Assembly (NCBI GenBank): GCA_964489405.1 | Contig: CAZAYL010000002.1 | Location: 1-62,680 of the forward strand | Source of the DNA: an uncultured Lachnospiraceae bacterium | GTDB taxonomy: Bacteria; Bacillota; Clostridia; Christensenellales; UBA1242 | Direction: 5' to 3' | Length of the DNA: 62,680 bases | Part shown: in pieces, positions 4,815-55,411 of the stretch | Layout of the letters: every line of letters begins with the position of its first letter | How positions within the stretch are numbered: position 1 is the first letter of the stretch | Notes under the pieces: model-generated | Told to the model about the DNA's origin: nothing | Databases searched by the model: none | The model's input: only the letters and a program-made list of their open reading frames with translations | Translations under genes and position numbers: made by a program

Positions 4815-5918
4815 ATGGCATATTTAGCACTCTATAGAAAATATCGCCCGCAAACTTTCGACAAAGTTGTTGGGCAAGAACATATTACAAAAACACTTAT
4901 CAATCAAATAAAATCAAACAAAATAAGCCACGCGTATTTGTTTTGTGGTTCACGCGGGACGGGGAAAACAAGCGTCGCAAAAATTTTCGCACGCGCGATT
5001 AATTGCGAAACCCCAATAGACGGCTCCCCGTGCGGGAAATGCAAGTCTTGCCAAGAAGTAAATGTTTTGAACAATATGGATATTATGGAAATCGACGCTG
5101 CCAGCAACAACCGCGTCGATGAAATTCGCGACCTACGCGAAAAGGTCAAATATCCGCCCGTTACGGGTAAGTACAAAGTGTATATCGTCGACGAAGTGCA
5201 TATGCTCACAGACTCTGCATTCAATGCACTGCTAAAGACTTTGGAAGAACCCCCTGCACATTGCGTGTTCATTTTGGCGACTACTGAAGTCCAAAAATTG
5301 CCCGCGACGATTTTGTCGAGATGTATGCGCTTTGATTTCAAATTGATTGAACAAGGTATGCTTGAACAAATGCTAAAATCCGTCTTTGACGACTCGGGCA
5401 TCAAATACGACAACGACGCGGTTGCGTATATTGCCAAAGAAGGAAATGGTAGCGCGCGCGACACGCTTTCAATCGCTGATATGTGTGTGTCGTTCAGCAA
5501 TTCAAATGTTACGTATGACAGCGTTTTGCAAGTGCTGGGCGTCAATGACGACGCGGTTTTGGGCGAACTTGCACAAGCAATCATTGACGGAGATGCTGGC
5601 GCGTATCTATCAAAAATTGACGAGCTCGCCAAATTAGGGAAAAGTTTGTCAATGCTCGTGCGCGATATATCAATATATTTCCGCAACCTTATGATTGTCA
5701 AAAGTTGTAAAGGTTATAGAAATATGATTGTTTTGCGCGATGACGTCGCTCGACTTATGGAGAAGCAAGCAACTGCACTTGAAATGTCTCAAATCACAGA
5801 CTGCCTTGCGGAATTTGGCGAAGTGGAACTAAATCTAAAATACAGCGTTCGCCCTCAACTCTTGATTGAAGTCGCGGGACTTAAATGTATGAAAAAAAAA
5901 CAAATGATGAAGATTTAG
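4815..5918 (+). CDS. dnaX: DNA polymerase III gamma/tau subunit, zero-frame product (ATPase and clamp-loader domains only)
   Basis: 367 aa with Walker A GSRGTGKTS, DEVHML, the SRC motif (ILSRC) and the Zn module CGKCKSC. It stops at 5916-5918, just after an A9 run. Confidence 0.9.
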   Translation: MAYLALYRKYRPQTFDKVVGQEHITKTLINQIKSNKISHAYLFCGSRGTGKTSVAKIFARAINCETPIDGSPCGKCKSCQEVNVLNNMDIMEIDAASNNRVDEIRDLREKVKYPPVTGKYKVYIVDEVHMLTDSAFNALLKTLEEPPAHCVFILATTEVQKLPATILSRCMRFDFKLIEQGMLEQMLKSVFDDSGIKYDNDAVAYIAKEGNGSARDTLSIADMCVSFSNSNVTYDSVLQVLGVNDDAVLGELAQAIIDGDAGAYLSKIDELAKLGKSLSMLVRDISIYFRNLMIVKSCKGYRNMIVLRDDVARLMEKQATALEMSQITDCLAEFGEVELNLKYSVRPQLLIEVAGLKCMKKKQMMKI

Positions 5919-6391
5919 CGCTTGAAGACTCTTTAAATACGCAAAATGCTGATTTTGAAAACTTAAAGAATGAAACAATATTGATGGACGCGCAAATGTT
6001 CCCCACCCCTGAAAGTGCTAAAGTCGTTGACGAAGTAATTGCAAATACTGAGATTGAACTAAAAGACGACATTTTTGAAAATAAAGGGACAAGCGCGGAA
6101 CTGCGACTTTGGGGAGACATTTTGCTAAAAGTTAAACAAAGTGGCGACAATATTTTAGGAGCGATTTGCGAAACAATCGACAAAACAAAAATAAACGGCG
6201 ATAATTTTGAGATATATTTGCACTCAAATAGTTTCGACAATATTGAGTATTATAACAAAATGCAAAAAATTATTAGGGAACTTACTAACTTAAATCTCAA
6301 AGTTTGCAATTATGACAACAAAAATATGAAAATAGACAAAGATATTGAGTATCTAAAACAAAAATTTGGCGAAAAATTAAGTATTATATAA
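5885..6391 (+). CDS. dnaX: Probable C-terminal (tau-specific) part of DnaX, encoded in the -1 frame
   Basis: 168-codon ORF in the -1 frame relative to 4815-5918. That frame is closed by TAA at 5882-5884. Fusing the two frames would give about 525 aa, a typical Firmicute DnaX length. Confidence 0.6.
   Translation: MYEKKTNDEDLALEDSLNTQNADFENLKNETILMDAQMFPTPESAKVVDEVIANTEIELKDDIFENKGTSAELRLWGDILLKVKQSGDNILGAICETIDKTKINGDNFEIYLHSNSFDNIEYYNKMQKIIRELTNLNLKVCNYDNKNMKIDKDIEYLKQKFGEKLSII
5892..5900 (+). other. A9 homopolymer: candidate -1 frameshift / transcriptional slippage site in dnaX
   Basis: Nine consecutive A (A_AAA_AAA_A in the zero frame) lie inside the 34-nt overlap between the two dnaX reading frames. 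Confidence 0.6.
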
Positions 6392-7335: not shown

Positions 7336-9693
7336 ATGTTCAACAAAAAAAAGGGAAAACAGAATAATAATAGCCTTTATTCTCACTTAAGTCCGATGGA
7401 TGCACAGTATTTTTCACAGTTGGACGAAAGTATTGCTCTTGCACAAAAGAAAAACAATAAAAACTTTTATGAGTTTTTGATAGACAAAAAACAATTTGAT
7501 ATGAATTATATCAAAGTCAAAGACGACAATAAAATTGGTAAAATAGACTTGCTTCCCACAAGTCTTTTGTCTATTTTAAATAACCGCGACAATGAAAAAT
7601 TGTTTGAAAAATATAAAAAAGACACAATGCAAGTTGCAAATATTTTGTTTGACAGCAATATGACAATTCAAGAGATTTGCGCCACGGCGTGTGAGTTTGT
7701 TAGATTGTCGACTTCCACTTTTGATAGATACGACAGCGAGAGCGTGCAAAATCCACAAAGCGTACTTTGCGGGCTACTTAGCACAAATGTGTATGGTATG
7801 CTCTCATTTTACTTTGGCGTCAGCAATTCTGTCGACCGAACGCAATTAGTTGCGTGGCTCATAAATGCGGGACTTGATATAAAACATAGTTTAAGTTACG
7901 CCGAGTGCCTTATCGACGCATACGGAAAACCCGTATGCCACATTGTTGACTTTAGCGGTAAAATGGGCGTTTCGTTTGTTGATTATGTCGGGGTCGCAAA
8001 TGCCTACACAAAAAAGATTGAGAGTCTTGCAGGACTTTGCGATTTTCTTGATTTTACAAAGGAAATTGAAAATGGCAAAAAGCGCGCGCTGAAACTTTTA
8101 ACAAAGTCTGTGCCAAGCAAACTTATGGTAAAAAATTCTAACCTTGAAAAAGCTTTGACCACTATGACGCAAATGGCATATCAAAAGATGTCGGACATCA
8201 CGCCGTGTGATATGAATATGTTGTCTTCTTTCGACGGTAAAATTTGGAAATTCTCTACACTTTGTGAGCTTTTGCTTTTCGCAAACAATGCTGAATATGA
8301 AGTCGTCCTTGACCTATTCGACGAGAACCAATATTCCTTGAAATTAAAACTCAATAGCAATAGCAATGAGAAATTTAAAATATTCCCCAATAAGGTTATT
8401 GATGAAGAATATAAATTAAATGAACCCAAAATTTACATCCTAAATAAATTAAATAATCAAACTGCTTTATCCCCTGAAGATGATTTCTTTAATGAACAAC
8501 TTGAAAACATTGGGCGCGATAATAGTGCAAAAGACGAATTTTCATTCGACGATTTCGAAATTTCAAATAATACTCAAAGTAAACAAAGTGAGTTTTCTTT
8601 TGACAATTTTGAAAACTTTGAACCAATGCCTGCATCTGACGTTTTAGATAATTTGAATCTACACTTTACGCCAAAAGAAAACGAGAGCTTGTCATTTGAA
8701 AATGGACAATTCAAATTTACCGACGACGATATGAATGAATTGTTTGACTTGTCTAATACCACGCAAGTCGACTTTGACAAAGCTGACGCTGAACAAAAAA
8801 TGCTAGAGCAGTCTATCGGTAAACAACCAACTAAAAAAGAAGAAGCAAAGCACAAAGATTTCTTTGAATTGCTAAATGAAATGACTGAGAAAGTAAAGGA
8901 AAATAAAACTAGACGCCTAAAAGAAGAATACGAAAAACTTGAGAAAAATCACGAACTAAAAACTCTAGAAAAAATTCCACCACAACAAAATGTTGATGTG
9001 GCAAATGCATTAGAAACTCAATCTCAATACGATTTTGAATTAGATGACAAACCAATTAAAAACGACGAAAATATTCTTATAAATGAAAATAGTATAGAAA
9101 ATAGTGATAATGCAGAAATTGACAACTTGCTTGCATTTTTTGACAACATACCGGCACAAAATGATAGTTTACCTACACAAAATGAAGCGTCGCCTACGCA
9201 AGAAAATACAGCCAAACAAACTGAAAGTCTTGAAAATTATGACAATATTTTTGATTTTAATCAAGATTTTAATAATCAAGAAAATGAATTAAATGAAATT
9301 ATTGACAATGACATTCAACTCGATGAAATAAACCCTTTGAGTGAAATTAATACCTTAAATAATATAGACACAAATGAAATAAATACCATAGATGAAGCCA
9401 ATGCACTAGATGATTTAGACACGTCAAATGAAAATGATGAAGCATATAGTATTTATGACGACTTAATGCAGTTCAGTGATTATAATTATAACCCTAATGA
9501 ATTAAGTGGCGAAAATCTTGACTTAAGCACAACTTCCAAAGAACAACCAACAACAAAAGTCGATACGGACGCGCAGTCAGTTCACGCAGAATTGCCGAAA
9601 CGTGCAAAAGCCCCCGCAAAAGCGCAAGCAAATTTTGCACCGTCAATCCCGCGTCGAAAGCCCGCGCCCAAAATACCTAAAAGAAAGAAATGA
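7336..9693 (+). CDS. Hypothetical 785-aa protein: about 370-aa N-terminal domain, long acidic low-complexity region, basic C-terminal tail
   Basis: AGGAG SD; no signal peptide or TM. Short motifs recur (EFSFDDFE / EFSFDNFE). D/E/N-rich from about nt 8458. Tail is PKRAKAPAKAQANFAPSIPRRKPAPKIPKRKK. Confidence 0.7.
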   Translation: MFNKKKGKQNNNSLYSHLSPMDAQYFSQLDESIALAQKKNNKNFYEFLIDKKQFDMNYIKVKDDNKIGKIDLLPTSLLSILNNRDNEKLFEKYKKDTMQVANILFDSNMTIQEICATACEFVRLSTSTFDRYDSESVQNPQSVLCGLLSTNVYGMLSFYFGVSNSVDRTQLVAWLINAGLDIKHSLSYAECLIDAYGKPVCHIVDFSGKMGVSFVDYVGVANAYTKKIESLAGLCDFLDFTKEIENGKKRALKLLTKSVPSKLMVKNSNLEKALTTMTQMAYQKMSDITPCDMNMLSSFDGKIWKFSTLCELLLFANNAEYEVVLDLFDENQYSLKLKLNSNSNEKFKIFPNKVIDEEYKLNEPKIYILNKLNNQTALSPEDDFFNEQLENIGRDNSAKDEFSFDDFEISNNTQSKQSEFSFDNFENFEPMPASDVLDNLNLHFTPKENESLSFENGQFKFTDDDMNELFDLSNTTQVDFDKADAEQKMLEQSIGKQPTKKEEAKHKDFFELLNEMTEKVKENKTRRLKEEYEKLEKNHELKTLEKIPPQQNVDVANALETQSQYDFELDDKPIKNDENILINENSIENSDNAEIDNLLAFFDNIPAQNDSLPTQNEASPTQENTAKQTESLENYDNIFDFNQDFNNQENELNEIIDNDIQLDEINPLSEINTLNNIDTNEINTIDEANALDDLDTSNENDEAYSIYDDLMQFSDYNYNPNELSGENLDLSTTSKEQPTTKVDTDAQSVHAELPKRAKAPAKAQANFAPSIPRRKPAPKIPKRKK

Positions 9694-15296: not shown

Positions 15297-18200
15297 TTAG
15301 ACTTCCCAAATAAGTTTAGGGTAATTGCCCGCAACGCAACTAAAGTATGTGTTTGCTTTATTTAGTTTGTCTATAATTGCCCCATCAGTTCCACTTTCCG
15401 CCTGCAATTTCTCTTTTGTTGTAATTTCCATTTTTACTGTATCAAGTGTTTGAGTAGACATCGTACAAGCGTTCGGAATTCCAACTCCCTCAATATAATA
15501 TGAGTTGTTGATATACGAATTCACGCTATTTGTATTCCACCCCACAATTGCACCAGTATTTTCAGTGAAAGTTTCGTCATTGTCGTTGTAAATATATGTT
15601 GTCCCGACATTATAGCACGTATCAATTATTCCCCCCGCAATCAACCCGACAATACCGCCAACCTTTGTTCCAGATTCAGAAGAATCATCGCCATTAGCAC
15701 GTGCGTTGACAAGGCCCGTGTTGTAGCAAGCTATCACTTGTGGCATAATGGCACCCGTTTCACTAGCACTTGTGTACTCAATCGTTCCCGCAATGCCACC
15801 TGCACGCGCAAACGCGCTACCAAGTTCTCCTTGGCTCGGTGTTGCATTAATAGAAGCCGAGTTCTTACAACTTTCAATTACTCCCGCAACCCCAACACAA
15901 TAGCCCGCAATTCCGCCAACATATGTGCCTTGAATTTGTTTTTCGCTACCTTCAATTACTCGCGTTTCACAATTTTTGATAACACCCGAGTTATACCCCA
16001 CAATACCCCCTGCATAAACAAATGTTTTTGTGTTTGTAGCATTAATTCTAATTTGCGAAAGACAATTTGCAATCACGCCCGTATTAGTATTTTCGCCCGC
16101 AATTCCGCCAACGTATGTTTGTTCTCCCCCTGCTGAATATGCTGATGTGATACCATTTGTAGTGCTTGTTGCCTTGACATTCTCAATACTCCCGCTATTT
16201 TTAGCAGTTACAAGCCCAATTTTGTAATACGAACCGCTGACTGTGAATTTTTCCAAAGTAAAATTCTTAACAACTCCACCAGCGGATATTGATGAAAATA
16301 ATCCAAATTCGCCAGTTCCCCCGAAAGCACTCGAAGTGTCATCTCCAGTACTAAATGTAATCGTATGATTGTTACCGTCAAAAACACCTTCAAAGCCATA
16401 ATCGCCAAGTTTCGCAAAACTCAACGTGTCTTTTGTTCCAAGCGGGGCAAAAGATGAACTAATCGTAACATTTTCGTCTAATTTAAATGCTTTATCATAT
16501 AGATAGTTAAGGTATGTCAATTGCTCTAATGCTGTATAAGTTTTCGCGCTCACGCCCTCGCCGTCAGTGAATCCTTTGATTATATAAGGGTCATCTGTCT
16601 CCCCACTTCCTGATGAGAACAAGTTAAACAAATACTCATCAGCAAGTTCCGATGTATCACTTTGAATGCAGTTTTCGCCAACCGCATAGACAAGTAGTTT
16701 ATACTTGCCAAGTTTGTTAAGTGTGTGGAATGTTTTACTATCGGCAAATTCGATATTGATTGTCCCCATATCAAATTCTTGCCCTTTCTCAGCATAGTAG
16801 TAACCGAACATATATTTAACATCCAATTCCTCACTACCCTCGGAAGCGGTCCAACGGAACACGCCATAATCAGCGCTCAAGTCTGTCGGCGCGCCAAGTT
16901 TCGCGCCATTAATTTGCGCTATGTCTGAATTTATGCAACTAAAACTCTTTGTGGTCGTATTTCCGTCCATAACTATATCTTTAGTCACAACATCTCCGCT
17001 TGCAAAAACTCCAAACACATACTGTCCAACCCACAATTCATCATTGCCAAATCTATAGTAGTTGGTGTCAACATTTATAGAGTTAGGTATTGTTTTATAA
17101 GTGTATGAAATTGAATAATTCAGTGCATTATCAACCGCATTCCATTCAAGACGCCCAACGTGTGCCTTTTCTTCAGTAGTCGCACCTTCAAAGTTCGAAT
17201 TAATGTGCAAGTTCTCAGGAGTTGCCATTTTGTATGCACAAAACTCTTCAGACGAAGCAGAGTTTAAATACCCCCCAGACCCAACTTGTTGCTCAGTCCC
17301 CAATAATGTAACTTTGACAAAATAATATCCTGTCTCAATTTCTTTGAATTCAAATGAATTTTCTTCAATATCTTCATCCTTAACTGCAACGCCACTATCG
17401 TTCATTATAACTATATGATATTTTTGCGCGCCATTTGATGCCCAATTTAGCACGCCGTTCTCTACATATAATATGGTTTGCTTTAATTTTTCTATCCAAA
17501 TTTCATCCGACGGGTCGCTCGTCAATTTATCTATGCTGTCCCCGACACAACGCACAGCGACTTCATATCCCATAGCACTGTACGCATCGCCAAGTGAATA
17601 GGTGGTATTAGTTTCAACATCTTTAATATACGTATCGTCGTTCAAAATTAATTCATAACTGGTTGCTCTTTCGTTTCGTGTCCACGAAATATCCCCATTT
17701 GTAACACCTAAATCTTTAGGCGCATTTAATTTCTCGAGCTTTTGAGTGTATTTATAAACATCTGAGTTGATGTATTTTGTGTCATCACCTAAAACGCTGA
17801 TAGAAATTTTGTAAGTTCCCATTTCTCCTGTCGGCAAATAATAGTTTTCAGACTTTGGTTGTAAATATGTTTCATAAGAAAGCGTATCCCCGTTAAGTTC
17901 ATCAGATTTGTAGACGTAAATTTTATATAGTGTTGCGTTGTCAATACCTTTCCAATATAATTGTCCGTCCTTTACCTGAATGTCACCATTCTCAGCAATT
18001 GGCGTCTTTAACTTCTCAACACTAAACTCCGCACTCTTATCGCTCGAAAATATTGTCGAGCCATTTCCCATTGCTGTAATCGAAACGCTGTATTCGCCCG
18101 CAGTAAAATTTTCCCCTAACTCAAACGTTGTAACATTTTTACTATTGTAGTAATCTGTTGGCTTTGATTCCGATAATAATTTCCCTATTTCAATTTTGTA

Positions 18201-21200
18201 TTCAACTGCTGAATAAATTTTCGAATAATTAATCGTTCCATTTACTACCGATAAGATAGGGACATCGAGTTTTTCAATATTAATTGACTTTGAATATGAA
18301 CTATAGAGATATTCTTGTGTTGCTGATTTATCTACAGAACGCATATACACTGTATACGTCCCTGCACCTTTACCACTTAGATATTTAGCCACATCATATT
18401 CCCCACCGTTTACACCCTTAGTTGAAGTGATTTCAATACTATCTGGCTCCCCAGTTTGTGAAAAAACAATCTCATATCCAGTTGCATTCGCAACATAATC
18501 AAAGTATAAAGTATAGTTTTCAATTCTAATATTGCGCGGTTCAGCAAGAATTTTGGCTTCAAAATTTTTTGCACCATTATGCCCGCCAAACTCGCCATTT
18601 ACGGTATCGGTATTGTTCCCATTTGCTTTGACGCGAACATAATATGATGTGCCCCCACTTAAACCATAGAGTGTGTAACTCGTGTCTGCGATTGACCGCG
18701 CACTCCCAACTATAGTGTTATTTTGGTCAACAATCTCAACATCATACGAATTTGCCCCGGCAACACTATTCCATTTAATTATATTTTTTTCAACACTAAA
18801 TGTAAACACATTTGTAAGTTTTACAACGCTCGTTTCGTTCGAAACCACTTTAGAATCTAGTATATTTGACTTATTCCCACGCGCAATCACGCTAACGGTG
18901 TGATCTCCAGCAGTGCCCGCAACCGTATATGTATTCACATTCCCGCATGTACTGCCAAGTGAGTTGCCGTCCAGAATAACTTCATAATACGTAACGCCGT
19001 CAACCGCATCCCACGTGATAAGTCCATTTTTAACATTTAACTTTATTACCGATGCAAGCCTTTTTGCAGAGATAGCCCCGCTTAGTCTACTTGTAATGTC
19101 ATAGGTGTATTCAGCGTTATCAATATCACTTGTTGCACCAATTGCACGCATTGAAATATCATAGTCGCCCGCATTTGCAAACAATGTCGAATCCGTTAAA
19201 TTTATAAATGCGACATCTGCGCCGTCGACAAACATTGTTTGTTTATTTGTTACCCCACTTGCAACATATTTAATCTCAATGTTGTATCCTGTCGCTCCGC
19301 TTTGTGTATTCCAACTCAAATTTCCATTTTCAATCTTGAGTCCCATATTGCTAGAAAGTTTGTGTAGTTTGATAGGTTCACTAAAGTTTGAGCTGATTGT
19401 GCTTTGTCCGTCGCCGATTGCTTGCAAACTAACCAAATTCACTTCGTCATCTGATAAAAATCTATCAAAGTCCAAATATTCATCATTAACTGATAAATAT
19501 GTCATATTCCCAACGCGTAAGTTGTACCCAAGGTAACTTGCGCCACTTGCCATTGAGTAATATAGGTGCCCCCCATCGACTTTAAAGTCTGTTGGGCACG
19601 AAAGCTTTTCGAATGTTATAGCCTCAGACTTTTCGCCACTGACAGACAAAGTATCTGTGCTAATTGCTTGAATTTTTATACTATAGTTTCCGCTATCATA
19701 CGTGCTCGACGAAAAATCGAAACTAGTACCACTAACACGCACCGGCTCGTTTGAATCATTGACATAAACATCATACAAGATTGCTTCGCCAACCCCTTGC
19801 CACTGAACTTTTCCGCCACTCAAAGTAACCTTAGACACTTCAATAGTACTAATTTTTCTAAATTCAAAAGATTGACTAAACTCCGAATCAACTATTTCCT
19901 TACCATTGCCTACGGCCTTTGTATTTATGATATATTTTTGCGCAGTAAATTTTTGCGTGTCGGTGTCAAAAAGATTTATGTAATTTTGCGTTTGAATAGG
20001 GAGTTCGCGTGTATCATTTAAAAGCACAATATAACCAGTGCTTGATGCAACCGTTTTCCACGTAACATCATCGCCATTGATTGAAAAACTTTTAGGTGCC
20101 TCAAGTTTTGTTACACTCAAAATATCAGAATAATCGCTATTAACAAATCTTGTTTGTTCATTGACTTTTCCACCCGTTGCAATGACTGAAAGTTTGTAAT
20201 TTCCAACATCGACGTATTTTGACGCAAAATCAAAGCGCTCATCGATCAGATCTTCTTCGATAGTTGTCTTATCGCCGTACTCTACCTTTAGTGAATACCC
20301 TGTCGCGTTGCTAACTTCGTCCCAAGTAACAATGCCGTTATTAATTTCGACATTTTGTGGTTTTGACAATTTATCTACAGCAAACTCCATTGAATATGCT
20401 GAATCTAATGTTGTGCGTCCGTCGCCGAGTGCTTGGACATAGATATTGTACCCACCCGCGCGATATGTTTCGCCAAGATTGTACTCCACATATGTTGATG
20501 TCGCATTTACTATTTCAGTCCTTTGTGCGCCTGATGCATTGTCGGTTATCCATATTCTATAGTTTTGCGCTCCGACGACACTTTTAAATGTCAAAATTTT
20601 ATCCTCAACTTGCGACTCAATTGGCGCCTCAAGTTTTGTTATTGTTATGGTGTTGGAAAAATTGGAATTATATGTGTTATTGCTAACATTTCCAAGCGCG
20701 CGAACCTTGAATGCATAAAAGCCAACATCAAGTTCATCTTCAATTAAATATGTTAGTTCTGTATAGCGATTTTTGTGCGTTTCGCCATTCATAATAATTT
20801 CGAACATATTTGCGTTTGAATTTGGAGTAATTGTTATTTTGGCATTTTCAATTGAGATGTTAGGTGCTGACAATTGTGTAAATGTGAAATCCACCGAATT
20901 TTCCGCATCAAGGTATGCTTTATTGTTGCCGAGAGCGCGTATTGAAATCACATTTTGCACGCCAATTTCAAAATCGGTAAAAAACTCCGTAACAAGCGTT
21001 TTTGTATAGGGCTCTCCATTTAAGGTAACTGCGTATCCATAATTGTGATTAACTCTGTCCCACACGACTTTTTCGCCATCAAACTTAATGTTTGTAACCG
21101 TATTGAGTTTCTCTGGGTTTGTAAATACAATAACTTTGACTACCGCGCTTGCACCCCCTGATGTTGCCGTAACTGAAACCTCTGTTTCGCCACTCGCAAC

Positions 21201-21473
21201 CGCGGTTATATTGCCGTTTTTATCAACAACTGCAACTTTTGTATCTGCACTCACAAATACCAAATCAGCATTACTTGCATTGGACGGCGAAAGCGTCAAC
21301 GTCAACTGCTCACTCGCTCCAACAACTAATTCTACTTTTGATTGCGTGATGATGATTTTGTTGATTTGTTTTGAATTATCCTCGCCACACGCGCTAAAAA
21401 GTATTGCAATTGCAAATATGATTGCCACGAGCAACACATTCCTTATTGCGCTGATTTTCTTTAGTTTTGTCAT
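15297..21473 (-). CDS. Giant (2058 aa) surface lipoprotein: Big_2-like domain, at least 14 Fn3-like tandem modules, C-terminal GLUG-motif repeat domain
   Basis: Signal peptide plus lipobox (ILFSAC-GEDN). The signature W-x-x-V-x-x-A-x-x-Y recurs every 85-95 aa (VTWDEVSNATGY, ITWDAVDGVTYY, IKWNSVAGANSY and others). The C-terminus has repeated GGIAG/GGIVG GLUG motifs (nt about 15297-16560). Confidence 0.85.
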   Translation of the reverse strand: MTKLKKISAIRNVLLVAIIFAIAILFSACGEDNSKQINKIIITQSKVELVVGASEQLTLTLSPSNASNADLVFVSADTKVAVVDKNGNITAVASGETEVSVTATSGGASAVVKVIVFTNPEKLNTVTNIKFDGEKVVWDRVNHNYGYAVTLNGEPYTKTLVTEFFTDFEIGVQNVISIRALGNNKAYLDAENSVDFTFTQLSAPNISIENAKITITPNSNANMFEIIMNGETHKNRYTELTYLIEDELDVGFYAFKVRALGNVSNNTYNSNFSNTITITKLEAPIESQVEDKILTFKSVVGAQNYRIWITDNASGAQRTEIVNATSTYVEYNLGETYRAGGYNIYVQALGDGRTTLDSAYSMEFAVDKLSKPQNVEINNGIVTWDEVSNATGYSLKVEYGDKTTIEEDLIDERFDFASKYVDVGNYKLSVIATGGKVNEQTRFVNSDYSDILSVTKLEAPKSFSINGDDVTWKTVASSTGYIVLLNDTRELPIQTQNYINLFDTDTQKFTAQKYIINTKAVGNGKEIVDSEFSQSFEFRKISTIEVSKVTLSGGKVQWQGVGEAILYDVYVNDSNEPVRVSGTSFDFSSSTYDSGNYSIKIQAISTDTLSVSGEKSEAITFEKLSCPTDFKVDGGHLYYSMASGASYLGYNLRVGNMTYLSVNDEYLDFDRFLSDDEVNLVSLQAIGDGQSTISSNFSEPIKLHKLSSNMGLKIENGNLSWNTQSGATGYNIEIKYVASGVTNKQTMFVDGADVAFINLTDSTLFANAGDYDISMRAIGATSDIDNAEYTYDITSRLSGAISAKRLASVIKLNVKNGLITWDAVDGVTYYEVILDGNSLGSTCGNVNTYTVAGTAGDHTVSVIARGNKSNILDSKVVSNETSVVKLTNVFTFSVEKNIIKWNSVAGANSYDVEIVDQNNTIVGSARSIADTSYTLYGLSGGTSYYVRVKANGNNTDTVNGEFGGHNGAKNFEAKILAEPRNIRIENYTLYFDYVANATGYEIVFSQTGEPDSIEITSTKGVNGGEYDVAKYLSGKGAGTYTVYMRSVDKSATQEYLYSSYSKSINIEKLDVPILSVVNGTINYSKIYSAVEYKIEIGKLLSESKPTDYYNSKNVTTFELGENFTAGEYSVSITAMGNGSTIFSSDKSAEFSVEKLKTPIAENGDIQVKDGQLYWKGIDNATLYKIYVYKSDELNGDTLSYETYLQPKSENYYLPTGEMGTYKISISVLGDDTKYINSDVYKYTQKLEKLNAPKDLGVTNGDISWTRNERATSYELILNDDTYIKDVETNTTYSLGDAYSAMGYEVAVRCVGDSIDKLTSDPSDEIWIEKLKQTILYVENGVLNWASNGAQKYHIVIMNDSGVAVKDEDIEENSFEFKEIETGYYFVKVTLLGTEQQVGSGGYLNSASSEEFCAYKMATPENLHINSNFEGATTEEKAHVGRLEWNAVDNALNYSISYTYKTIPNSINVDTNYYRFGNDELWVGQYVFGVFASGDVVTKDIVMDGNTTTKSFSCINSDIAQINGAKLGAPTDLSADYGVFRWTASEGSEELDVKYMFGYYYAEKGQEFDMGTINIEFADSKTFHTLNKLGKYKLLVYAVGENCIQSDTSELADEYLFNLFSSGSGETDDPYIIKGFTDGEGVSAKTYTALEQLTYLNYLYDKAFKLDENVTISSSFAPLGTKDTLSFAKLGDYGFEGVFDGNNHTITFSTGDDTSSAFGGTGEFGLFSSISAGGVVKNFTLEKFTVSGSYYKIGLVTAKNSGSIENVKATSTTNGITSAYSAGGEQTYVGGIAGENTNTGVIANCLSQIRINATNTKTFVYAGGIVGYNSGVIKNCETRVIEGSEKQIQGTYVGGIAGYCVGVAGVIESCKNSASINATPSQGELGSAFARAGGIAGTIEYTSASETGAIMPQVIACYNTGLVNARANGDDSSESGTKVGGIVGLIAGGIIDTCYNVGTTYIYNDNDETFTENTGAIVGWNTNSVNSYINNSYYIEGVGIPNACTMSTQTLDTVKMEITTKEKLQAESGTDGAIIDKLNKANTYFSCVAGNYPKLIWEV

Positions 21474-25840: not shown

Positions 25841-26613
25841 TATACTCTCCTTTTGTTTTTCTTTAAAAATTCATCAGCCATTGCACGATAAGCGAGTGCC
25901 CCCGCACATTTGCTATCATATAAATAAACTGGTATTCCGTGACTTGGCGCTTCCGCAAGTCTAATATTACGCGGAATGGTTGTATCAAAAACTTTTTTCC
26001 CAAAATATTGTCTAATTTGTTCCGAAACTTGTTGTACAAGGTTTGAACGATTGTCTTTCATTGTCATAACAACTCCTTCAATTTCAAGTTCGGGGTTTAA
26101 ATGTTTTTTGACAAGTTTAACAGTATTCATCAATTGGCTTAAACCCTCCAAAGCGTAAAATTCGCATTGGATAGGTATCAAAACCGTATCAGACGCGGAA
26201 AGTGCATTTATTGTCAACAAGCCAAGTGATGGTGGACAATCAATCATAATAAAATCGTATTCATCTTTTATTTCCGACAAACTTTCTTTTAGAACTTTCT
26301 CTCGATTATTAACTGCTACTAATTCTATTTCAGCTCCCGCCAAATCGACTGTCGCTGGTAAAATTGAAAGGTTTTTAACCATCGTTTCAGTAATAGCTTC
26401 TCTAATGGGGCATTCACCATCTAAAACGCTATATATAGTCTTTAAATTCGACCCTTTTTCAACGCCAAGGCCACTCGACGCATTGCCCTGTGGGTCCATA
26501 TCAATAAGCAAAGTCTTTTTACCTAATGTAGCAATGAACGCAGATAAATTGACGCAAGTCGTTGTTTTGCCAACCCCCCCCTTTTGATTTACAAATGAAA
26601 TAATCTTTCCCAT
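25840..26613 (-). CDS. parA: Chromosome partitioning ATPase ParA/Soj
   Basis: Deviant Walker A NQKGGVGKTTT. The second ATG (26613) is preferred because AAGGAG lies 6 nt upstream of it. The stop overlaps the parB start. Confidence 0.9.
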   Translation of the reverse strand: MGKIISFVNQKGGVGKTTTCVNLSAFIATLGKKTLLIDMDPQGNASSGLGVEKGSNLKTIYSVLDGECPIREAITETMVKNLSILPATVDLAGAEIELVAVNNREKVLKESLSEIKDEYDFIMIDCPPSLGLLTINALSASDTVLIPIQCEFYALEGLSQLMNTVKLVKKHLNPELEIEGVVMTMKDNRSNLVQQVSEQIRQYFGKKVFDTTIPRNIRLAEAPSHGIPVYLYDSKCAGALAYRAMADEFLKKNKRRV

Positions 26614-26996
26614 ACTCATCTCCTTAAGTTATTTTTATATATTATAACACCTTTTTCAAAAAAAAACACTACTTTAAAGCAAAAAAAAAATATTTGAATT
26701 ATTTTTTTTTGCTATTAAATATATAAATTAGTGAATCTATATATAAATTGTGCATTCTTTAATTTATATAATCCAATCAATAAACAAAAACAATAATTTT
26801 GCTTAAATATTTAGTTAAGTATTAAACTATTATTGCAAATATATAATTTTATAGGTTAAAAACCTTAAAAAAGTGGGGGTATTTTTAAATTTTATGTATT
26901 TATTGATAACTTATTCAACCTATATAGATTTTTTTGAAATTTACCCCCACTTTTAAAGGGGTATTTTTAACAAAAATCACTTTCCTTGTTTACTTA

Positions 26997-39673: not shown

Positions 39674-41083
39674 ATGAAAGCAATTACAACTGAAAACAAT
39701 ATAGAAAAATTTAAAAAAAAAGTACCCAAAGAAGCGTTGGCTCTTAGCGAAATATTTACTGCCAACAAACATAAATTATATATCGTTGGCGGATATATTC
39801 GCGATTATTTTTTAAAAATAAAAACAGAAGATATTGATATTTGTGGAACTGCTACACCACAACAACTTGAAGAATTATTATCAAATACAGACTTTAAATT
39901 TACTATCATAAATAAAAACTTAGGTACATATAAAATTTATAAAAGTAATAGCAAAATTGAATTTGAATACACCACATTGCGAGAAGAAAAATATCAAACT
40001 GGACACATACCAAGTGAAGTTAATTTTGTTGATGATGTTTTAATCGATGCACAACGCCGAGATTTTACGGTAAATACAATTTATTATGATTTTTCTAATA
40101 GTAAATTTATTGACCCATATAATGGTTTACAAGATTGCTATCATCGAGTTTTGAAACCTATAAATCATAAAGTTTTTGATAGCGACGGCTTACGTATTAT
40201 GCGCTTAGTTCGATTTGCATACACTAAAAAAATGAAAATACCTAAAGATGTTTTTGATAGTGCACATTTACGAGTATACCTTTTGCGTGATATTGCACAC
40301 GAAAGGATTGCACAAGAAATGGGTGTAATTGCGGAATATCAAAAAAACATACCCCTTAATGATATATGCAATATAATTAAATATGGAGATGAGCGTATTA
40401 ATTTAGGTGTAAGGAATGAAAAAGCTTTGTTTTCAGCTCTCGACCTATTAGATGCTCTTATGTCGCTTGGTATCATTGATTATATTTTCCCAAAGCTTTC
40501 ATTTAGTATTGATATGAATAAAATTTACACAACATACACCACCCCTATTCTGTCATATCAGTTTTTTGAATATAATTTTGGGCTTGCACTTACTTATTAC
40601 ATTTGTAAAACACTTACAACGCAAAATTATGAACTCTCTATTGAGTTTTATCAAGAACTTTTTGGCGTAGATGGTTTAATGTTGTCAAAATTATATTTAA
40701 AAGAAATGGTGCTAACTTTAGATGGTCTTTTGACATTAAATAAAATGCGCGACGAAAGTTTTTATGTCAACTTTATTCAAATGTATTACTCTGTGTTGCC
40801 AGAAATAATGTACTATGGTAAGCTAATATCAAATCATTATGATTCACAATGTGAGCGCCTTATTACAACAAATTCTCTTATGAAAGCGAATAATATTCCG
40901 CGATGTATTAAAGAGCTTGCTATTAAAGCCAAAGATATTATTAATAGATGGCCACTTATGCCACAAAAGTACATATCTTCATTATTAGAGTGTGCTATGA
41001 TTGTGGCGACAAAAGATAGATGCAATGAAAAAGAATATTTACTAAATGAACTTGGAAAATTTATAGTGAGGGAAGAAGTATGA
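39674..41083 (+). CDS. tRNA nucleotidyltransferase / poly(A) polymerase family protein (CCA-adding-enzyme-like)
   Basis: ATG 39674 follows a GAGG SD. Head-domain motifs LYIVGGYIRD, DIDICG and RRDFTVN are present. Confidence 0.75.
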   Translation: MKAITTENNIEKFKKKVPKEALALSEIFTANKHKLYIVGGYIRDYFLKIKTEDIDICGTATPQQLEELLSNTDFKFTIINKNLGTYKIYKSNSKIEFEYTTLREEKYQTGHIPSEVNFVDDVLIDAQRRDFTVNTIYYDFSNSKFIDPYNGLQDCYHRVLKPINHKVFDSDGLRIMRLVRFAYTKKMKIPKDVFDSAHLRVYLLRDIAHERIAQEMGVIAEYQKNIPLNDICNIIKYGDERINLGVRNEKALFSALDLLDALMSLGIIDYIFPKLSFSIDMNKIYTTYTTPILSYQFFEYNFGLALTYYICKTLTTQNYELSIEFYQELFGVDGLMLSKLYLKEMVLTLDGLLTLNKMRDESFYVNFIQMYYSVLPEIMYYGKLISNHYDSQCERLITTNSLMKANNIPRCIKELAIKAKDIINRWPLMPQKYISSLLECAMIVATKDRCNEKEYLLNELGKFIVREEV

Positions 41084-50137: not shown

Positions 50138-50380
50138 TATTTATTGACTAAAGTCCACTTAATTTAGATATTTGATTGAGAATAATTGTGGAGTATTAAA
50201 CAAAATAAATAGAAACATTACTATGAAATTAATAGGTATGTCAATACTTTTTGCATAACCTATTTTTTTTATGGATTTGTTTTTAAACAAACCACACAAA
50301 AATTTTAAATTTCCTATTGACTTTTTTTGATTTTTCTTGTATTCTTAAATAAGAATTTTACATATAATTTTGGAGTGTAT

Positions 50381-53300
50381 ATGCAAAGACTAAAAAAATC
50401 AAGCAAATTATTTTTTATAGCGTTCGTATCAATAATTTTAACCTTTTCACTTTTAGGGTTGGGAGCGTATTTTGATAAAGAAAAGTTGAATTCAATTTAC
50501 GCTGACAGCACGGTTGAAACTGTCATTGAATACGGCGAATACCTTTCGAATTTGACGCCGATATCACAAACAATCGGTTATAGCACATTAAAATTGGATA
50601 AAAACATAAATGGAGATGTTATTTCTTTTATAGTCAATGGGGCTACAAAGAGTTTTAAAAAGGGACTTATTGCCCACGCGACATCGACGCTCGTTTATGA
50701 CCTTGGGGCAAGTCATCATTATGACTATTTTTCCACTTATATGGGGATAGACGCTGTGCAAAATGGCAAAGGCAATGCCAAATTTTCGGTTTACACATCT
50801 ACAGACAACGAAAATTGGACGGCGGTCCTTGAACCGACTGCAAGGACAAGTAGTGATGAAGCAATTTTTCTTCAAATTTCAATCAAAGACATTAGATATT
50901 TAAAATTTTATTTTGATTCTAATGGGGTTAATAGTTATGACCATTCGGGGCTAGGCGATTGCAAACTTTTTTCATCTGGCTATGATTTTGAAAGAAGTGA
51001 AGACTTAATCAAAACAGTTGAATATTATAATAATTTATTTACAGGCAAAACAACACAAGAAATTTTAGAAAATTATACGCTAGAACTTATGCAACGCAAA
51101 TTTATTGACACAATAGGTTATGAAACAATAAAAGACGGGCTCTTAATTGGGGAGTTTGAGCACGAACGCCGACAAATGCTAAATTGGTTATATAATGACA
51201 GCATAGCATTGAGAGATTTTGTAACAGGGGGGGCTCCTAATGGGGGCAGTTACATAAATGCGCTCAAAGTTTTGACAAGACTATACAAAGAGCATAGTGC
51301 CGACCTTAGCGACACAACGGCATTGTTTGCCCCAGAAACAGGGTCAACAAGAACTCGCGGGGACGTCTATCGCACTATGATGATTTCAATTGCATTGACA
51401 AATGCAAGGGACGTCTATGGTTGGGTAAACTCGGGCGATATTCTTGACCCACTTGCAAGATATGAAGCATTCAAATATACGTATCTTGCGGAAGGTTACC
51501 ACTTGAGATATGATATTTTTGAGAACCTTTGCGTCGAAGAGATGAGATACCTAATGAGTTCACGCATTAATAGTGAAGAAATATATTGGCTCAATGCATA
51601 CTCTACAATTAAATATTTAGAAAAAAATTCAGCAATCAAATATCCAAATGTTTATTCGCCACATTCGCACATTCGCTATGGGAGAGATTGGAACTATGCG
51701 TCAAAGGGATATTATGAAAAAGAAAACTTTGAACAGTATAATCAAAAATATATGCTAGAGCAATTCGGCGTGTATTTGACAACAACTCCACGCCTCTGGA
51801 TGGCGATGGATGGTAGTCAAATTTGTTGGGGCATTTCGTACCTTGGCACAAACTTTGCGTCCGCATTTGGTGTTCCATCTCACTATGTTAGACAGCCCGA
51901 CCACGCGGCGTTTCTTGTATACAACAAGGACTCCAACGGGAGAACCACTTGGACAATCGATAACGACATATTCGGGTGGACAAAAACTTGGATGAATGAA
52001 GACACCGTCGGGCACGGCAACAATCGTATGATGTGCGATTGGGGGACAACGGGCAGTGAACAGGTTACACATTCTAATGCCACATATATTCTCTTGTCCG
52101 CAACTGCACTTGACAATCAAGATAGTTATGAAAGAGCGGAACTTGTATTGAGTCTTAAAAGCGCAACACCGCTTGCAGAACAAGAAAACTTATTTAGATA
52201 TGCTTTGTCTATTATGCCATATCACTTAGATGCTTGGTATGAACTTGTCAAATTGTATATTAACACTAATGAAAGTGATGATAAATTGACACAACTTGCA
52301 GAAGAAATTGCACAAAATATGTATTGTTTCCCTCTCCCTATGCACGAATTAATTGCGTTGATTGAAAATGAATTGAGTGCGCGCAACACTGATTCTTCTA
52401 TTATTCAACTTGCAAACATTCGAAACATAGACAATATTGCATTGCAAAAAGCAACCAACGTAAACAACGATGAAGATGCAAAAATTTTAATCGCGCAAAC
52501 CGCTCCTTGCATTCAAGAAGCAAAATATCTACTCGGCTTAGTGGAAGAAGAAAAACTGGCAACGTTTGCTTTTGACGGCGGAAATAAAAACAAATTGGTA
52601 TTTAATTCAAACTATACAAGTGTTAGATACAAATACAGTATTGACGGGGGAACAACGTGGAGCGATTCACTTGTTACATCGGCAGATAATATTGCGCACG
52701 AATTGACTGCTAGTGAACTTGCGACTATTTCGAGTGCTAACGACATATACATTTGGCTTGAAGGTTGGGGCACAACAATTGATATTTCTAAGGCGTTCAA
52801 AATCGATATTGTGGACGGCGTCGCGATTTCTAACCTAGAAAGCAATGACAACGAGAATAGATTCTTTGGCACTTTTACAAATGTTGAATATTCACTAGAT
52901 GATGTACTTTGGCAAGATTTGAGCGAAAATAGCACATTTGAGGGGGACAAAACTATATATGTTCGCTATAAAAAGCATGGCACAACCCTACAAGGGAGTA
53001 GCACGATTTTTCAATTTGTCGACAATTTTAATTCGACAAGAAATTACATACCAATCTCATCACTTACCTTGTTTGATTATTCAAGTGAAGAAACATCTCG
53101 CAACGATTATGCAAAACACGCCATTGACGGTAAACTTTCTACGCGTTGGCACACAAAGTGGAGTGGTGGCGACACAAGCAGATTTATTACCGTGAAACTC
53201 GACAGCAGTAGGTACATTAGCGGGTTTGACTATACACCCGTTGGGGGGAATGGCACAATACTTGCTTGCAGTGTGTATGTCAGCCAAGATGGCACAAATT

Positions 53301-55411
53301 GGACTTTGGCAACGAATGTGAGCGGGTGGGGAAACAACAACACAAAGAAATCTTTGACATTTACGCCAATTTATGGGCAATATATCAAGGTTGTGGGGAC
53401 AAATACTGTTGGTGGTTTTTGTTCGGCAAGATTGTTAGAATTTTTTGAAGATACTACATTAAAAGACAAACAAATAAAAGGGCTGGAAATTGTAAGTCAA
53501 CCAAATCAAGAAGTTTACTTTATAAATCAAAAAATAAATTATAATGGCTTAAAAGTGAAAATAATTTTTCAGGACGACACTTTTGCAGTTATTCCTAATG
53601 AACTATTGACATTAGATGATATTACATTCACTCAACTTGGTACACAAGAAATAGTTGTCAAATATAATGAAACAATAAAATCAAGTTTTGTGGTTAAAAT
53701 CATAGACGTTAGCGACAGTGTAGCTTTAGTCGGCGAAAATTATTTTTCATCGCTTGACGACGCAATTGCAAACATTGAAAATGTTGGCACGATTGAACTT
53801 TTGAAGGATGTTGCCGTTTCATCGGGATATACTATTTCAAAGAAAATCACAATAAATGGCAATAATCATATTTTGACAAGACAAAGCGAGCTTTTGTCAG
53901 CGATATTTACTGTTACTGGCAGTGGAAGTTTGGCACTAGAAAATTTAATAATTGATGGTGGCGCAGTTTGGAGCGGAGACACAAACACCATTTTGGGGCG
54001 TGGGACAACGAATAATGGGATTTCCGCAACAAGTTCATTGATAAGAATGAGTGATTATTCTACACTTGTTTTAAATAATTGCACGCTGAAAAACAACTAC
54101 AACAATTATACTACAAATGCGCAAAACGCGGGTGGTGCAATCTTTTTAGGTGGTAACTCTAGTGCGACTTTGTCGAGTACAATAATTCAAAATTGTTATT
54201 CATATACATTTGGTTCAGCAATATATACGCGCGATAATTCAAATTTGGTAATTGATAGTGGGGTATTTTCAGGCAATAGTGGAAGCACAAATAACAACAC
54301 GACAGTTATTTGTGTGGACAATTCTTCGACTTGTACAATAAATGGCGGAATTTTTGAGAATAATCTCGCAAATTCAAGGGGGGGTGCAATTTGGGTTTCA
54401 AATGGGAGACTCGACATTAATGGCGGGACTTTCAGAAATAACTATGCAACATTTGGCGCGGGGATATATTTGTATGGAAACGCAAAAGTCAACATTGCAG
54501 ATTTTGAAGAAATGGAAGAAATTTATCTTCCAAGTGGCAAAAAAATCTACATTTTGGGTTTACTTTTGAACAGAACATTAAATATCAAAATGGCAAATAC
54601 CGCAGATGATACAATTCTTGCTGTTTGTGAAGATGAAGAATTGATATACAAAGTTCTAAAATCAATAAATGTGGAAAATAAACTTTTGTATGTCGATGCA
54701 ACAAATATAAAAATTGGGGACAAGACAAGCGCGAAAGCAACGATTAAAGTTGGTGAAAAAGAGATTTGTTTTTCATCTTTGATTCAAGCTATTAATTGTG
54801 CCGATAGTGGCGACACTATCGTTTTGAATGATGATGTTACGATTAATGAAGACATCTACATCGAGAAACCATTAATTGTCGACCTTGCAAATTCAATGTT
54901 TAATGGAATTGAGCATATCAAAACGCAATCGTTGTGCGTCCAATATGCTGACAACTTAATAGAAATTTGTAACCATACATATAATCAAAATGTCATATAT
55001 ACGTGGAGTGCAGATAATGCGACTTGTACCGCAGTCGGCTATTGCGAATGCGGAGAAATGCACACCGAAATTGTTCAAACAACCAAAACACTAATAACGC
55101 CAGCAAGTTATGAAAGCGAGGAACTTTCAAACTTTAGCGCCGAATTTAGTAGTTTTGAAAAACAAGAAAAAAAGAACGTTGTTACGGGCAGTCGTTTGAC
55201 AAAACCACAAACGGAAGATAACAATAAAGACAATACAAAAGATAATACTGAAACTGAAGTTGACAATACGACCAATAGCGCAAAAAATAGTAAAGAGAAA
55301 GATAATGATATAGTTTTGATATCGATAATTAGTGGTGGCGGAGTCGTTTTAATTGTGTTGGCAATATTGCTTACATTTAGGTTTAAAAGGAAAGATAAAA
55401 TTAAAAAATAA
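50381..55411 (+). CDS. Giant (1676 aa) multidomain surface protein: NPCBM-like, transglutaminase-like, F5/8 type C (discoidin), Ig-like, Pmp-type beta-helix, Cys-rich module, C-terminal TM anchor
   Basis: Start MQRLKK after a GGAG SD, followed by a signal/anchor helix. The NPCBM-like segment spans about 50504-50972. QICWGISY...QPDHAAFLVY...IDND lies at about 51800-51970. HAIDGKLSTRWHTKW discoidin lies at about 53100-53450. GGAIF/GSAIY/GGAIWV with FxxN repeats lie at about 54100-54480. The terminal helix is VLIVLAILLTF followed by RFKRKDKIKK. Confidence 0.8.
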   Translation: MQRLKKSSKLFFIAFVSIILTFSLLGLGAYFDKEKLNSIYADSTVETVIEYGEYLSNLTPISQTIGYSTLKLDKNINGDVISFIVNGATKSFKKGLIAHATSTLVYDLGASHHYDYFSTYMGIDAVQNGKGNAKFSVYTSTDNENWTAVLEPTARTSSDEAIFLQISIKDIRYLKFYFDSNGVNSYDHSGLGDCKLFSSGYDFERSEDLIKTVEYYNNLFTGKTTQEILENYTLELMQRKFIDTIGYETIKDGLLIGEFEHERRQMLNWLYNDSIALRDFVTGGAPNGGSYINALKVLTRLYKEHSADLSDTTALFAPETGSTRTRGDVYRTMMISIALTNARDVYGWVNSGDILDPLARYEAFKYTYLAEGYHLRYDIFENLCVEEMRYLMSSRINSEEIYWLNAYSTIKYLEKNSAIKYPNVYSPHSHIRYGRDWNYASKGYYEKENFEQYNQKYMLEQFGVYLTTTPRLWMAMDGSQICWGISYLGTNFASAFGVPSHYVRQPDHAAFLVYNKDSNGRTTWTIDNDIFGWTKTWMNEDTVGHGNNRMMCDWGTTGSEQVTHSNATYILLSATALDNQDSYERAELVLSLKSATPLAEQENLFRYALSIMPYHLDAWYELVKLYINTNESDDKLTQLAEEIAQNMYCFPLPMHELIALIENELSARNTDSSIIQLANIRNIDNIALQKATNVNNDEDAKILIAQTAPCIQEAKYLLGLVEEEKLATFAFDGGNKNKLVFNSNYTSVRYKYSIDGGTTWSDSLVTSADNIAHELTASELATISSANDIYIWLEGWGTTIDISKAFKIDIVDGVAISNLESNDNENRFFGTFTNVEYSLDDVLWQDLSENSTFEGDKTIYVRYKKHGTTLQGSSTIFQFVDNFNSTRNYIPISSLTLFDYSSEETSRNDYAKHAIDGKLSTRWHTKWSGGDTSRFITVKLDSSRYISGFDYTPVGGNGTILACSVYVSQDGTNWTLATNVSGWGNNNTKKSLTFTPIYGQYIKVVGTNTVGGFCSARLLEFFEDTTLKDKQIKGLEIVSQPNQEVYFINQKINYNGLKVKIIFQDDTFAVIPNELLTLDDITFTQLGTQEIVVKYNETIKSSFVVKIIDVSDSVALVGENYFSSLDDAIANIENVGTIELLKDVAVSSGYTISKKITINGNNHILTRQSELLSAIFTVTGSGSLALENLIIDGGAVWSGDTNTILGRGTTNNGISATSSLIRMSDYSTLVLNNCTLKNNYNNYTTNAQNAGGAIFLGGNSSATLSSTIIQNCYSYTFGSAIYTRDNSNLVIDSGVFSGNSGSTNNNTTVICVDNSSTCTINGGIFENNLANSRGGAIWVSNGRLDINGGTFRNNYATFGAGIYLYGNAKVNIADFEEMEEIYLPSGKKIYILGLLLNRTLNIKMANTADDTILAVCEDEELIYKVLKSINVENKLLYVDATNIKIGDKTSAKATIKVGEKEICFSSLIQAINCADSGDTIVLNDDVTINEDIYIEKPLIVDLANSMFNGIEHIKTQSLCVQYADNLIEICNHTYNQNVIYTWSADNATCTAVGYCECGEMHTEIVQTTKTLITPASYESEELSNFSAEFSSFEKQEKKNVVTGSRLTKPQTEDNNKDNTKDNTETEVDNTTNSAKNSKEKDNDIVLISIISGGGVVLIVLAILLTFRFKRKDKIKK

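Follow-up and report, generated by a model that had tools for sequence, protein, structure and literature searches.

In an uncultured Lachnospiraceae bacterium (GTDB lineage Bacteria; Bacillota; Clostridia; Christensenellales; UBA1242), the clamp-loader gene dnaX is divided between two reading frames at a run of nine adenines (A9), and we conclude that some form of programmed recoding at this run very probably produces the full-length subunit, tau. The stretch of DNA that we analysed, here called the window, comprises 62,680 nucleotides (nt) of contig CAZAYL010000002.1 (positions 1 to 62,680 of the forward strand, GenBank assembly GCA_964489405.1). An earlier note on this DNA, made from the letters alone, had proposed that a short gamma-like protein is the default product of the gene and that a shift of frame at the A-run gives tau, and this proposal is now supported by the conservation of the run, of the stop codons around it and of the open -1 frame that follows it. 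As to mechanism, we lean somewhat towards transcriptional slippage, in which RNA polymerase converts the A9 of the gene into A10 in the mRNA. That slippage occurs, that it is mainly transcriptional and that both products have a function is what we infer from the comparative data presented below.

Anatomy of the split dnaX gene

The open reading frame (ORF) in which dnaX begins, here ORF0, encodes Walker A, DEVHML and SRC motifs together with a Zn module, and matches to four Pfam families (DNA_pol3_delta2, PF13177; AAA, PF00004; an ATPase lid, PF22608; and DNA_pol3_gamma3, PF12169) span residues 20-360 of its 367 amino acids (aa). The identical 367-aa protein is present in an independent Logan assembly, and the downstream neighbours of the gene in the window are ybaB and recR, the usual neighbours of dnaX. 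The features of the junction are as follows.

4815-5918, forward strand: dnaX ORF0, 367 aa, gamma-like product of standard decoding with domains I-III (from the ORF list and Pfam)
5882-5884, forward strand: TAA stop in the -1 frame, upstream of A9, which bounds the shift window on its 5' side
5885-6391, forward strand: -1 ORF, open for 168 codons and ending in TAA
5892-5900, forward strand: A9 run, the putative recoding site, beginning in codon phase 0 (frame 0 reads AAA AAA AAA CAA)
5894-5900, forward strand: in-phase A_AAA_AAA heptamer, a potential tandem -1 ribosomal slip site (phase counted from the start of ORF0)
5905-5907, forward strand: TGA in the +1 frame, 7 nt past A9
5916-5918, forward strand: TAG stop of ORF0, five codons past A9, the 3' limit of the shift window
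5900-6100, forward strand: linker (TNDEDLALEDS...), acidic and little conserved, that belongs to the tau-specific extension and throughout which the -1 frame is open
6101-6391, forward strand: conserved C-terminal domain (WGDILLKVKQSGDN...IEYLKQKFGEKLSII) followed by TAA, in the -1 frame, resembling the polymerase-binding domain V of tau
Predicted junction peptide of the fused product: ...VAGLKCMKKKTND...

ORF0 and the -1 ORF overlap by 34 nt, and A9 lies inside this overlap; the positions that the earlier note gave for both frames, for the overlap and for the run all hold when checked against the sequence. Two details needed correction. Frame 0 had been said to read A_AAA_AAA_A across the run, but the run is in phase 0 and reads AAA_AAA_AAA_C, and the slippery heptamer A_AAA_AAA is nevertheless present in phase at 5894-5900. 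The fused product had been given as about 525 aa with ...GLKCMKKK joined to KTNDEDL...; the length of 525 aa is right, and the junction contained one lysine too many, given that either a -1 slip or an A10 mRNA leads from ...GLKCMKKK, with its three lysines, directly into TNDEDL.... Translated in silico, an mRNA with A10 yields 525 aa, those with A8 and A11 yield 363 and 364 aa, respectively, and end at the TGA at 5905-5907, and one with A12 yields 368 aa.

The run at 5892-5900 is the sole homopolymer of at least nine nt that lies deep within a coding sequence in the window, where eight of the ten homopolymers of this length are intergenic. A second in-coding A9, at 39713-39721, falls in frame (KKK) at codons 14-16 of an unbroken ORF that starts with the ATG at 39674 and encodes a ...LYIVGGYIRD... 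motif, resembling nucleotidyltransferases. Four homopolymers (C8, A9, A10 and T9) occur within ~140 nt of intergenic DNA at 26574-26710, between two minus-strand ORFs. An Rfam scan of the window returned only a tRNA, and a promoter and terminator scan around the dnaX junction returned nothing notable.

The -1 frame encodes the tau-specific part of DnaX

Searches of the -1 ORF against Pfam returned no family, and a sequence-profile search of the PDB with an alignment of the C-terminal part returned only noise. The last ~100 residues of the -1 ORF are collinear with the C-terminus of an uninterrupted 520-aa DnaX (E 1e-6). An AF2 model of the residues encoded by 6077-6388 reached a mean predicted local distance difference test (pLDDT) score of 82, and its top Foldseek match in the PDB was 5fku chain E (E 0.014, probability 0.98, template modelling score 0.49), a weak match to a chain that a sequence search identified as residues 500-643 of E. 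coli tau, its domain V. Because this structural match, weak alone, agrees with the collinearity and with the synteny of the locus, modelling and sequence comparison together indicate that the long product is a bona fide tau. The linker that precedes the domain is open in the -1 frame, whereas across the -1 ORF as a whole the other two frames contain 14 and 23 stops, and shuffled versions of the window linker remain open with P = 0.002.

The A-run and the frame split are conserved across lineages and assemblies

To place the window dnaX among its relatives we compared 12 lineages, namely the window and eleven others with retrieved DNA, including L009 and L010 from a scan of GTDB; these extend down to ~57% protein identity, and the assemblies in which split dnaX genes were found come from NCBI, ENA, JGI and Logan. 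An alignment of dnaX from relatives had been suggested in the earlier note, and the A-run and the frame split are kept in all 12. The run is A9 in eight lineages and A10 in four, L085 among the latter. In each of them the ORF0 stop lies 1-5 codons past the run and the -1 frame runs on for 114-310 codons without a stop, and a stop in the +1 frame follows 7-26 nt past the run (7-10 nt in 9/12). The TAA that closes the -1 frame is formed in seven lineages by a T and the first two A of the run itself, so that the -1 frame opens inside the run and a shift is therefore possible at the run only. Frame relations in the A10 lineages are the same as in the A9 lineages, and A10 thus differs from A9 by substitution and not by insertion or deletion. 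The ORF0 stop is TAG, TAA or TGA depending on the lineage. An alternative genetic code was rejected on account of this variety of ORF0 stops, and readthrough of the stop codon was rejected on account of the position of the downstream ORF in another frame.

Nearer to the window, its 90% cluster contains 16 distinct sequences from at least 42 contigs (NCBI, ENA and Logan), all of them 367 aa long. A search with the fused 525-aa sequence recovered the 367-aa window ORF together with 13 other clusters (75-90% identity), every one of 365-372 aa, and returned no match above 50% identity that covered the C-terminal part and no uninterrupted close relative. Two scans of JGI metagenomes, with the C-terminal alignment and with a clade-specific degenerate DNA pattern, returned no matches. 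One member of the 90% cluster, P0133, from a single 3-kb ENA contig, has the C-terminus ...CMNKKRMTTI, with asparagine in place of the first lysine of the run; judging by this protein sequence, its A-run would be interrupted and hold at most seven A, which may reflect a sequencing error or a natural variant. Two other proteins also stand out at this site, namely P0075, whose tail reads QQKN and whose run is possibly shorter, and P0016, which has an in-frame KKK.

Selection acts on the run and on the -1 frame

A codon-level test was performed on the nine members of the window clade, among which synonymous sites are saturated: among 197 columns in which the residue is invariant, a single codon is shared by all nine in only 12, and 2 of the 13 all-lysine columns are AAA throughout. 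The lysine codons of the run are AAA in 27/27 cases, compared with a pooled AAA usage of 73% elsewhere in the gene, and the run of L087 is all AAA although only 43% of lysine codons in L087 are AAA. Because the run retains AAA in every case despite saturated synonymous sites, the nucleotides of the run are themselves under selection.

The sequence past the run likewise points to the -1 frame as the one that is maintained. The frame-0 tails that follow KKK vary freely (QMMKI, RMKKI, RRKKI, RMTKN, RMTSK, RVRN, L, I and D), and the -1 reading just past the run is kept (TNDED, TDDEE and TDDEQ); the differences that separate the window, L082 and L083 right past the run alter the encoded residues in frame 0 but not in the -1 frame. 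Neither length (58-120 codons) nor sequence of the linker is conserved in the window clade, yet the -1 frame is open through it, with shuffled linkers remaining open at P <=0.015 in eight of the nine members, and with 9-51 stops in the other two frames over the span of the -1 ORF. Purifying selection acts on the -1 ORF, as judged from these alignments. No start codon for this ORF is conserved: just before the run there is an ATG in the window (5885) and in L083 and a GTG in L082, whereas the first ATG, GTG or TTG past the run comes only after 86 codons in L085, 55 in L087 and 36 in L095, and L091 has no ATG. Given the lack of a conserved start codon and a -1 frame that is open directly from the run, translation must enter the -1 frame at the run.

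Proposed slippage by RNA polymerase and alternative explanations

In the model that we favour, standard transcription and translation would produce the 367-aa gamma-like clamp-loader subunit by default, ending at the TAG at 5916. RNA polymerase would slip on A9 (T9 in the template) and place one non-templated A in a fraction of the transcripts, and this A10 mRNA would be translated normally from ...CMKKK into TNDED..., giving a 525-aa tau with its linker and C-terminal polymerase-binding domain. Transcripts with A8 or A11 would stop at the TGA at 5905 and provide further gamma-like forms, and the gamma:tau ratio would be set by the run alone. A stop near the run in the third frame is expected under this model because transcripts of several lengths would be made.

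The principal competitor, less likely in our judgement and still a serious contender, is programmed -1 ribosomal frameshifting, in which tRNA-Lys in the P and A sites would slip on A_AAA_AAA (5894-5900), so that the mRNA would keep A9 and translation would continue with ACA (Thr) in the -1 frame. The two mechanisms would give the same protein, and by its sequence an A9 holds an in-phase A_AAA_AAA in any phase; such a heptamer is indeed found in 12/12 lineages, regardless of whether the run is in phase 0, 1 or 2, and the run of a second clade always ends as A_AAA_AAC followed by a stop, A_AAA_AAC being a known -1 heptamer (Table S1 of PMC3711429). A reversed dnaX also appears to be ribosomal in at least one Chlorobium species (Atkins et al., PMC5009743). 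The stimulators that would be expected to accompany a ribosomal shift are missing, however. The 65 nt past the run gave fold z-scores of -0.55 to +1.10 in the 12 lineages, with no shared structure and hence no downstream hairpin, and in L085 the sequence past the run does not fold (minimum free energy 0). Upstream of the run, energies of anti-Shine-Dalgarno duplexes were within the background of the ORF in 12/12 lineages, and no Shine-Dalgarno (SD)-like element is conserved. For comparison, dnaX of E. coli needs both stimulators for ~50% frameshifting. Every run with retrieved DNA contains at least nine A, although seven would suffice for the ribosome, and at a length of nine the polymerase slips efficiently and many genomes begin to show that A/T runs in their genes are selected against (PMC1088944). 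In E. coli, moreover, A_AAA_AAA is less prone to shifting than A_AAA_AAG (PMC5009743).

Several observations weigh against polymerase slippage as we have framed it. The interrupted run of P0133 (NKK) would retain Y_AAA_AAA without a long run and, if the variant is real, fits ribosomal slippage better. The window tolerates an in-frame A9 early in the nucleotidyltransferase-like gene (39713-39721), where very efficient slippage would be costly, and the heptamer present in every A9 would allow the ribosome to arrive at the same tau. The start codons just upstream of the run in the window, L083 and L082 make separate initiation conceivable in these three, and in a neighbouring clade the same domain seems to exist as the product of a true fission.

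These last two points are also what favours fission of the gene, in which a gamma-like DnaX and a free C-terminal protein, initiated independently or by coupling (at ATG 5885), would be made and tau would not. A stand-alone C-terminal ORF is carried by L090 and the clade with 381-383-aa DnaX, which suggests that fission of this domain is viable. We nevertheless regard fission as improbable for the window, as the start codon is not conserved, the -1 frame opens inside the run in seven lineages, the SD upstream of 5885 is weak, the non-conserved linker is open from the run onward, and a split gene would have no need for invariant AAA codons or for at least nine A exactly at the junction. Phase variation at the DNA level, with replication slippage switching tau off (A9) and on (A10) within a population, is far less probable still. 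Long homopolymers are hypermutable, but neither the species cluster, with its at least 42 contigs, nor any relative shows a fused A10 'on' allele, and tau is expected to be essential (10.1101/2022.11.10.516041), which makes it implausible that nearly all assembled populations would be in the off state. Lowest of all stands an error of sequencing or assembly in the homopolymer, which the earlier note had named as the trivial alternative, or else a recent inactivating mutation. A9 is an error-prone context and the window is a single assembly, but 12 lineages and independent assemblies drawn from four sources show the same frame structure, all 16 variants of the cluster have the same length, the A10 lineages preserve the frames through substitution, and six A8/T8 runs and one A9 inside other ORFs of the window leave those ORFs unbroken. 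The independent assemblies and the lack of an uninterrupted close relative rule out a homopolymer error; a pseudogene or assembly artefact is effectively refuted by the presence of the break in relatives and independent assemblies and by a downstream frame that is not decaying and is under purifying selection. Taken jointly, all readings other than slippage by the polymerase or the ribosome hold only a minor share of the probability.

Comparison with known dnaX and slippage systems

The polarity of the window gene, in which the shifted product is the long one, was correctly noted earlier as the reverse of that in E. coli and Thermus, and it had already been described in the literature (PMC3711429, PMC5009743). 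Antonov et al. (2013, Nucleic Acids Research 41:6514, PMC3711429) reported reversed two-ORF dnaX genes in Chlorobi, Bacteroidetes and Verrucomicrobia, amounting to 17 genes in 12 genera, twelve of them with poly-A tracts of 7-10; the genera with poly-A are Chlorobium, Prosthecochloris, Pelodictyon, Chloroherpeton, Flavobacterium, Cytophaga, Capnocytophaga and Coraliomargarita, and the account is repeated in the review of Atkins et al. (2016, PMC5009743). The window shows all the sequence-level features of this class: the first ORF encodes domains I-III and the -1 frame the tau-specific part, their overlap contains a poly-A tract of 7-10 that is directly followed by the gamma stop, the longer subunit needs recoding, and the genome annotation bears no recoding mark. 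It differs in having C after an A9, whereas the run in most published cases is A10 with G after it, and in its lineage of uncultured gut Clostridia (Bacillota); no Clostridia are named in PMC3711429. A literature search found no later report of a reversed dnaX in Clostridia. The reversed layout is thus already known, and the window dnaX adds Clostridia to its distribution and no new mechanism.

A second known system is dnaX of Thermus thermophilus, whose products are set by heterogeneity of A-length in the mRNA, as demonstrated experimentally (Larsen et al. 2000, via PMC1088944 and PMC5009743). Both genes have an A9 at the end of the gamma-coding part, stops near the run in the non-productive frames and no flanking stimulators, and we propose that A-length heterogeneity of the mRNA would set the products of the window gene as well. 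In Thermus, however, the templated frame encodes tau and slipped transcripts encode gamma, whereas here the templated frame encodes gamma and transcripts longer by one nt would encode tau. The Thermus arrangement, in which the templated frame encodes tau and the other two are closed near the run, is accordingly not found in the window, and it is found in L011.

E. coli dnaX shares with the window the gene, the position of the site at the end of domain III, a slippery sequence of lysine codons and a common N-terminus of the two products, but its site is flanked by a 3' stem-loop and, 10 nt upstream, by an SD-like element, neither of which is present in the window. Its heptamer, A_AAA_AAG, ends in G, in contrast to A_AAA_AAA followed by C, and its shift leads to the short product where that of the window would lead to the 525-aa one. 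All four elements of the E. coli-type cassette for -1 programmed ribosomal frameshifting (heptamer, SD-like stimulator, stem-loop and short shifted product) are therefore absent here. A further parallel is mxiE of Shigella flexneri, in which transcriptional slippage joins mxiEa and mxiEb (PMC1088944): in both cases two overlapping ORFs meet at a homopolymer of ~9, and an extra non-templated base is used, or in the window would be used, for the longer functional protein. mxiE differs in being an unrelated gene for a transcription activator, in which slippage has a regulatory role and does not set a ratio of two subunits (PMC1088944).

Arrangements of dnaX in neighbouring lineages

An outgroup survey was performed by scanning GTDB with the N-terminal alignment, which recovered at least 80 loci, none above 58% identity among the matches listed. 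The full dnaX ORF could be read at 77 of the GTDB loci listed, and it is uninterrupted at 74 of these (469-629 aa). The closest named relatives are uncultured Clostridia (Bacillota). We constructed a rough neighbour-joining tree from the N-terminal 345 residues, in which the nine lineages of the window clade, all split at the A-run, form one group with the intact L001 as sister. A second group unites the split L009, L010 and L091 with L011, which is intact and has an in-frame A10, and a third holds L014 and L093/L094, which continue in the +1 frame and have no A-run, together with L090.

L011 (Ca. Caccovivens faecavium), sister to the split L009, has an uninterrupted 478-aa dnaX in which the in-frame A10 is at codon 364, the same codon as the run of the window, with stops 4 and 11 nt from A10 in the other frames as in Thermus. 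An uninterrupted 542-aa dnaX in a Desulfobacteraceae metagenome-assembled genome (L077) likewise holds an in-frame A10 near codon 396, at the domain III/IV boundary; in both L011 and L077 stops occur 4-12 nt past A10 in the two other frames, an arrangement of the Thermus type.

Other splits take a different form. In L090 (2644-3025), ORF0 ends in TAG, a TGA in the +1 frame follows 2 nt later, and a separate ORF of 123 codons, with a GTG at 2654 and AGGTGA just upstream, encodes the tau C-terminal domain (LFGRILISLRKN...YNEFGKILTIK). Since no simple frameshift joins these ORFs, the L090 gene looks, on its sequence, like a true fission; the corresponding DnaX length of 381-383 aa is common among the matches to the fused query. 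In L093 (2570-3085), in L094, which is a second independent assembly, and in L014 (3627-4079), the C-terminal part lies in the +1 frame, and a CCC codon lies either at the stop of ORF0 or one codon ahead of it (TGC CCC TAA in L014; TTA CCC AGT TGA in L093), so that a +1 shift of tRNA-Pro at CCC is possible in L014 and L093.

As a speculative extension, which we think rather doubtful, the boundary between domain III and the tau-specific part of DnaX might be an evolutionary hot spot that has hosted at least four interchangeable tau-setting devices in this radiation of Clostridia. These would be a gamma-default A-run (the window clade, L009, L010 and L091), a tau-default A-run (L011), a +1 shift near CCC (L014 and L093) and fission (L090 and the group with 381-383-aa DnaX).

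Other features of the window

Directly downstream of recR, at 7336-9693, the window encodes a 785-aa low-complexity ORF that is acidic and rich in asparagine, with no Pfam match on record; its position is kept in L082, L083 and L097, and its length in relatives is 878-898 aa. Two further ORFs are very long, namely 15297-21473 on the minus strand (2058 aa) and 50327-55411 on the plus strand (1694 aa).

Implications

Annotation pipelines call such a locus as a truncated 'gamma/tau' followed by a hypothetical protein, with the result that an essential polymerase-coupling subunit looks absent from these genomes; recognition of the recoding site corrects this. The reversed dnaX layout is extended to Bacillota, in whose models only full-length DnaX has been reported (PMC13220808; preprint 10.1101/2022.11.10.516041), although the gamma-default clade is in itself a modest extension. 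The same tract occurs in both polarities in sister lineages, which fits the idea that, with slippage near 50%, one base can swap which of the two products needs recoding (PMC5009743). Lacking flanking stimulators, these genes also offer a clean natural substrate on which slippage by polymerase and by ribosome on A9/A10 can be compared in a Gram-positive system. The covalent joining of clamp loader and polymerase-binding domain is considered the defining trait of tau, and if the fission lineages truly lack a fused tau, this joining would be dispensable. Finally, should the hot-spot reading prove true, the gamma form would be widespread in a phylum whose models, B. subtilis and S. pyogenes, make only tau.

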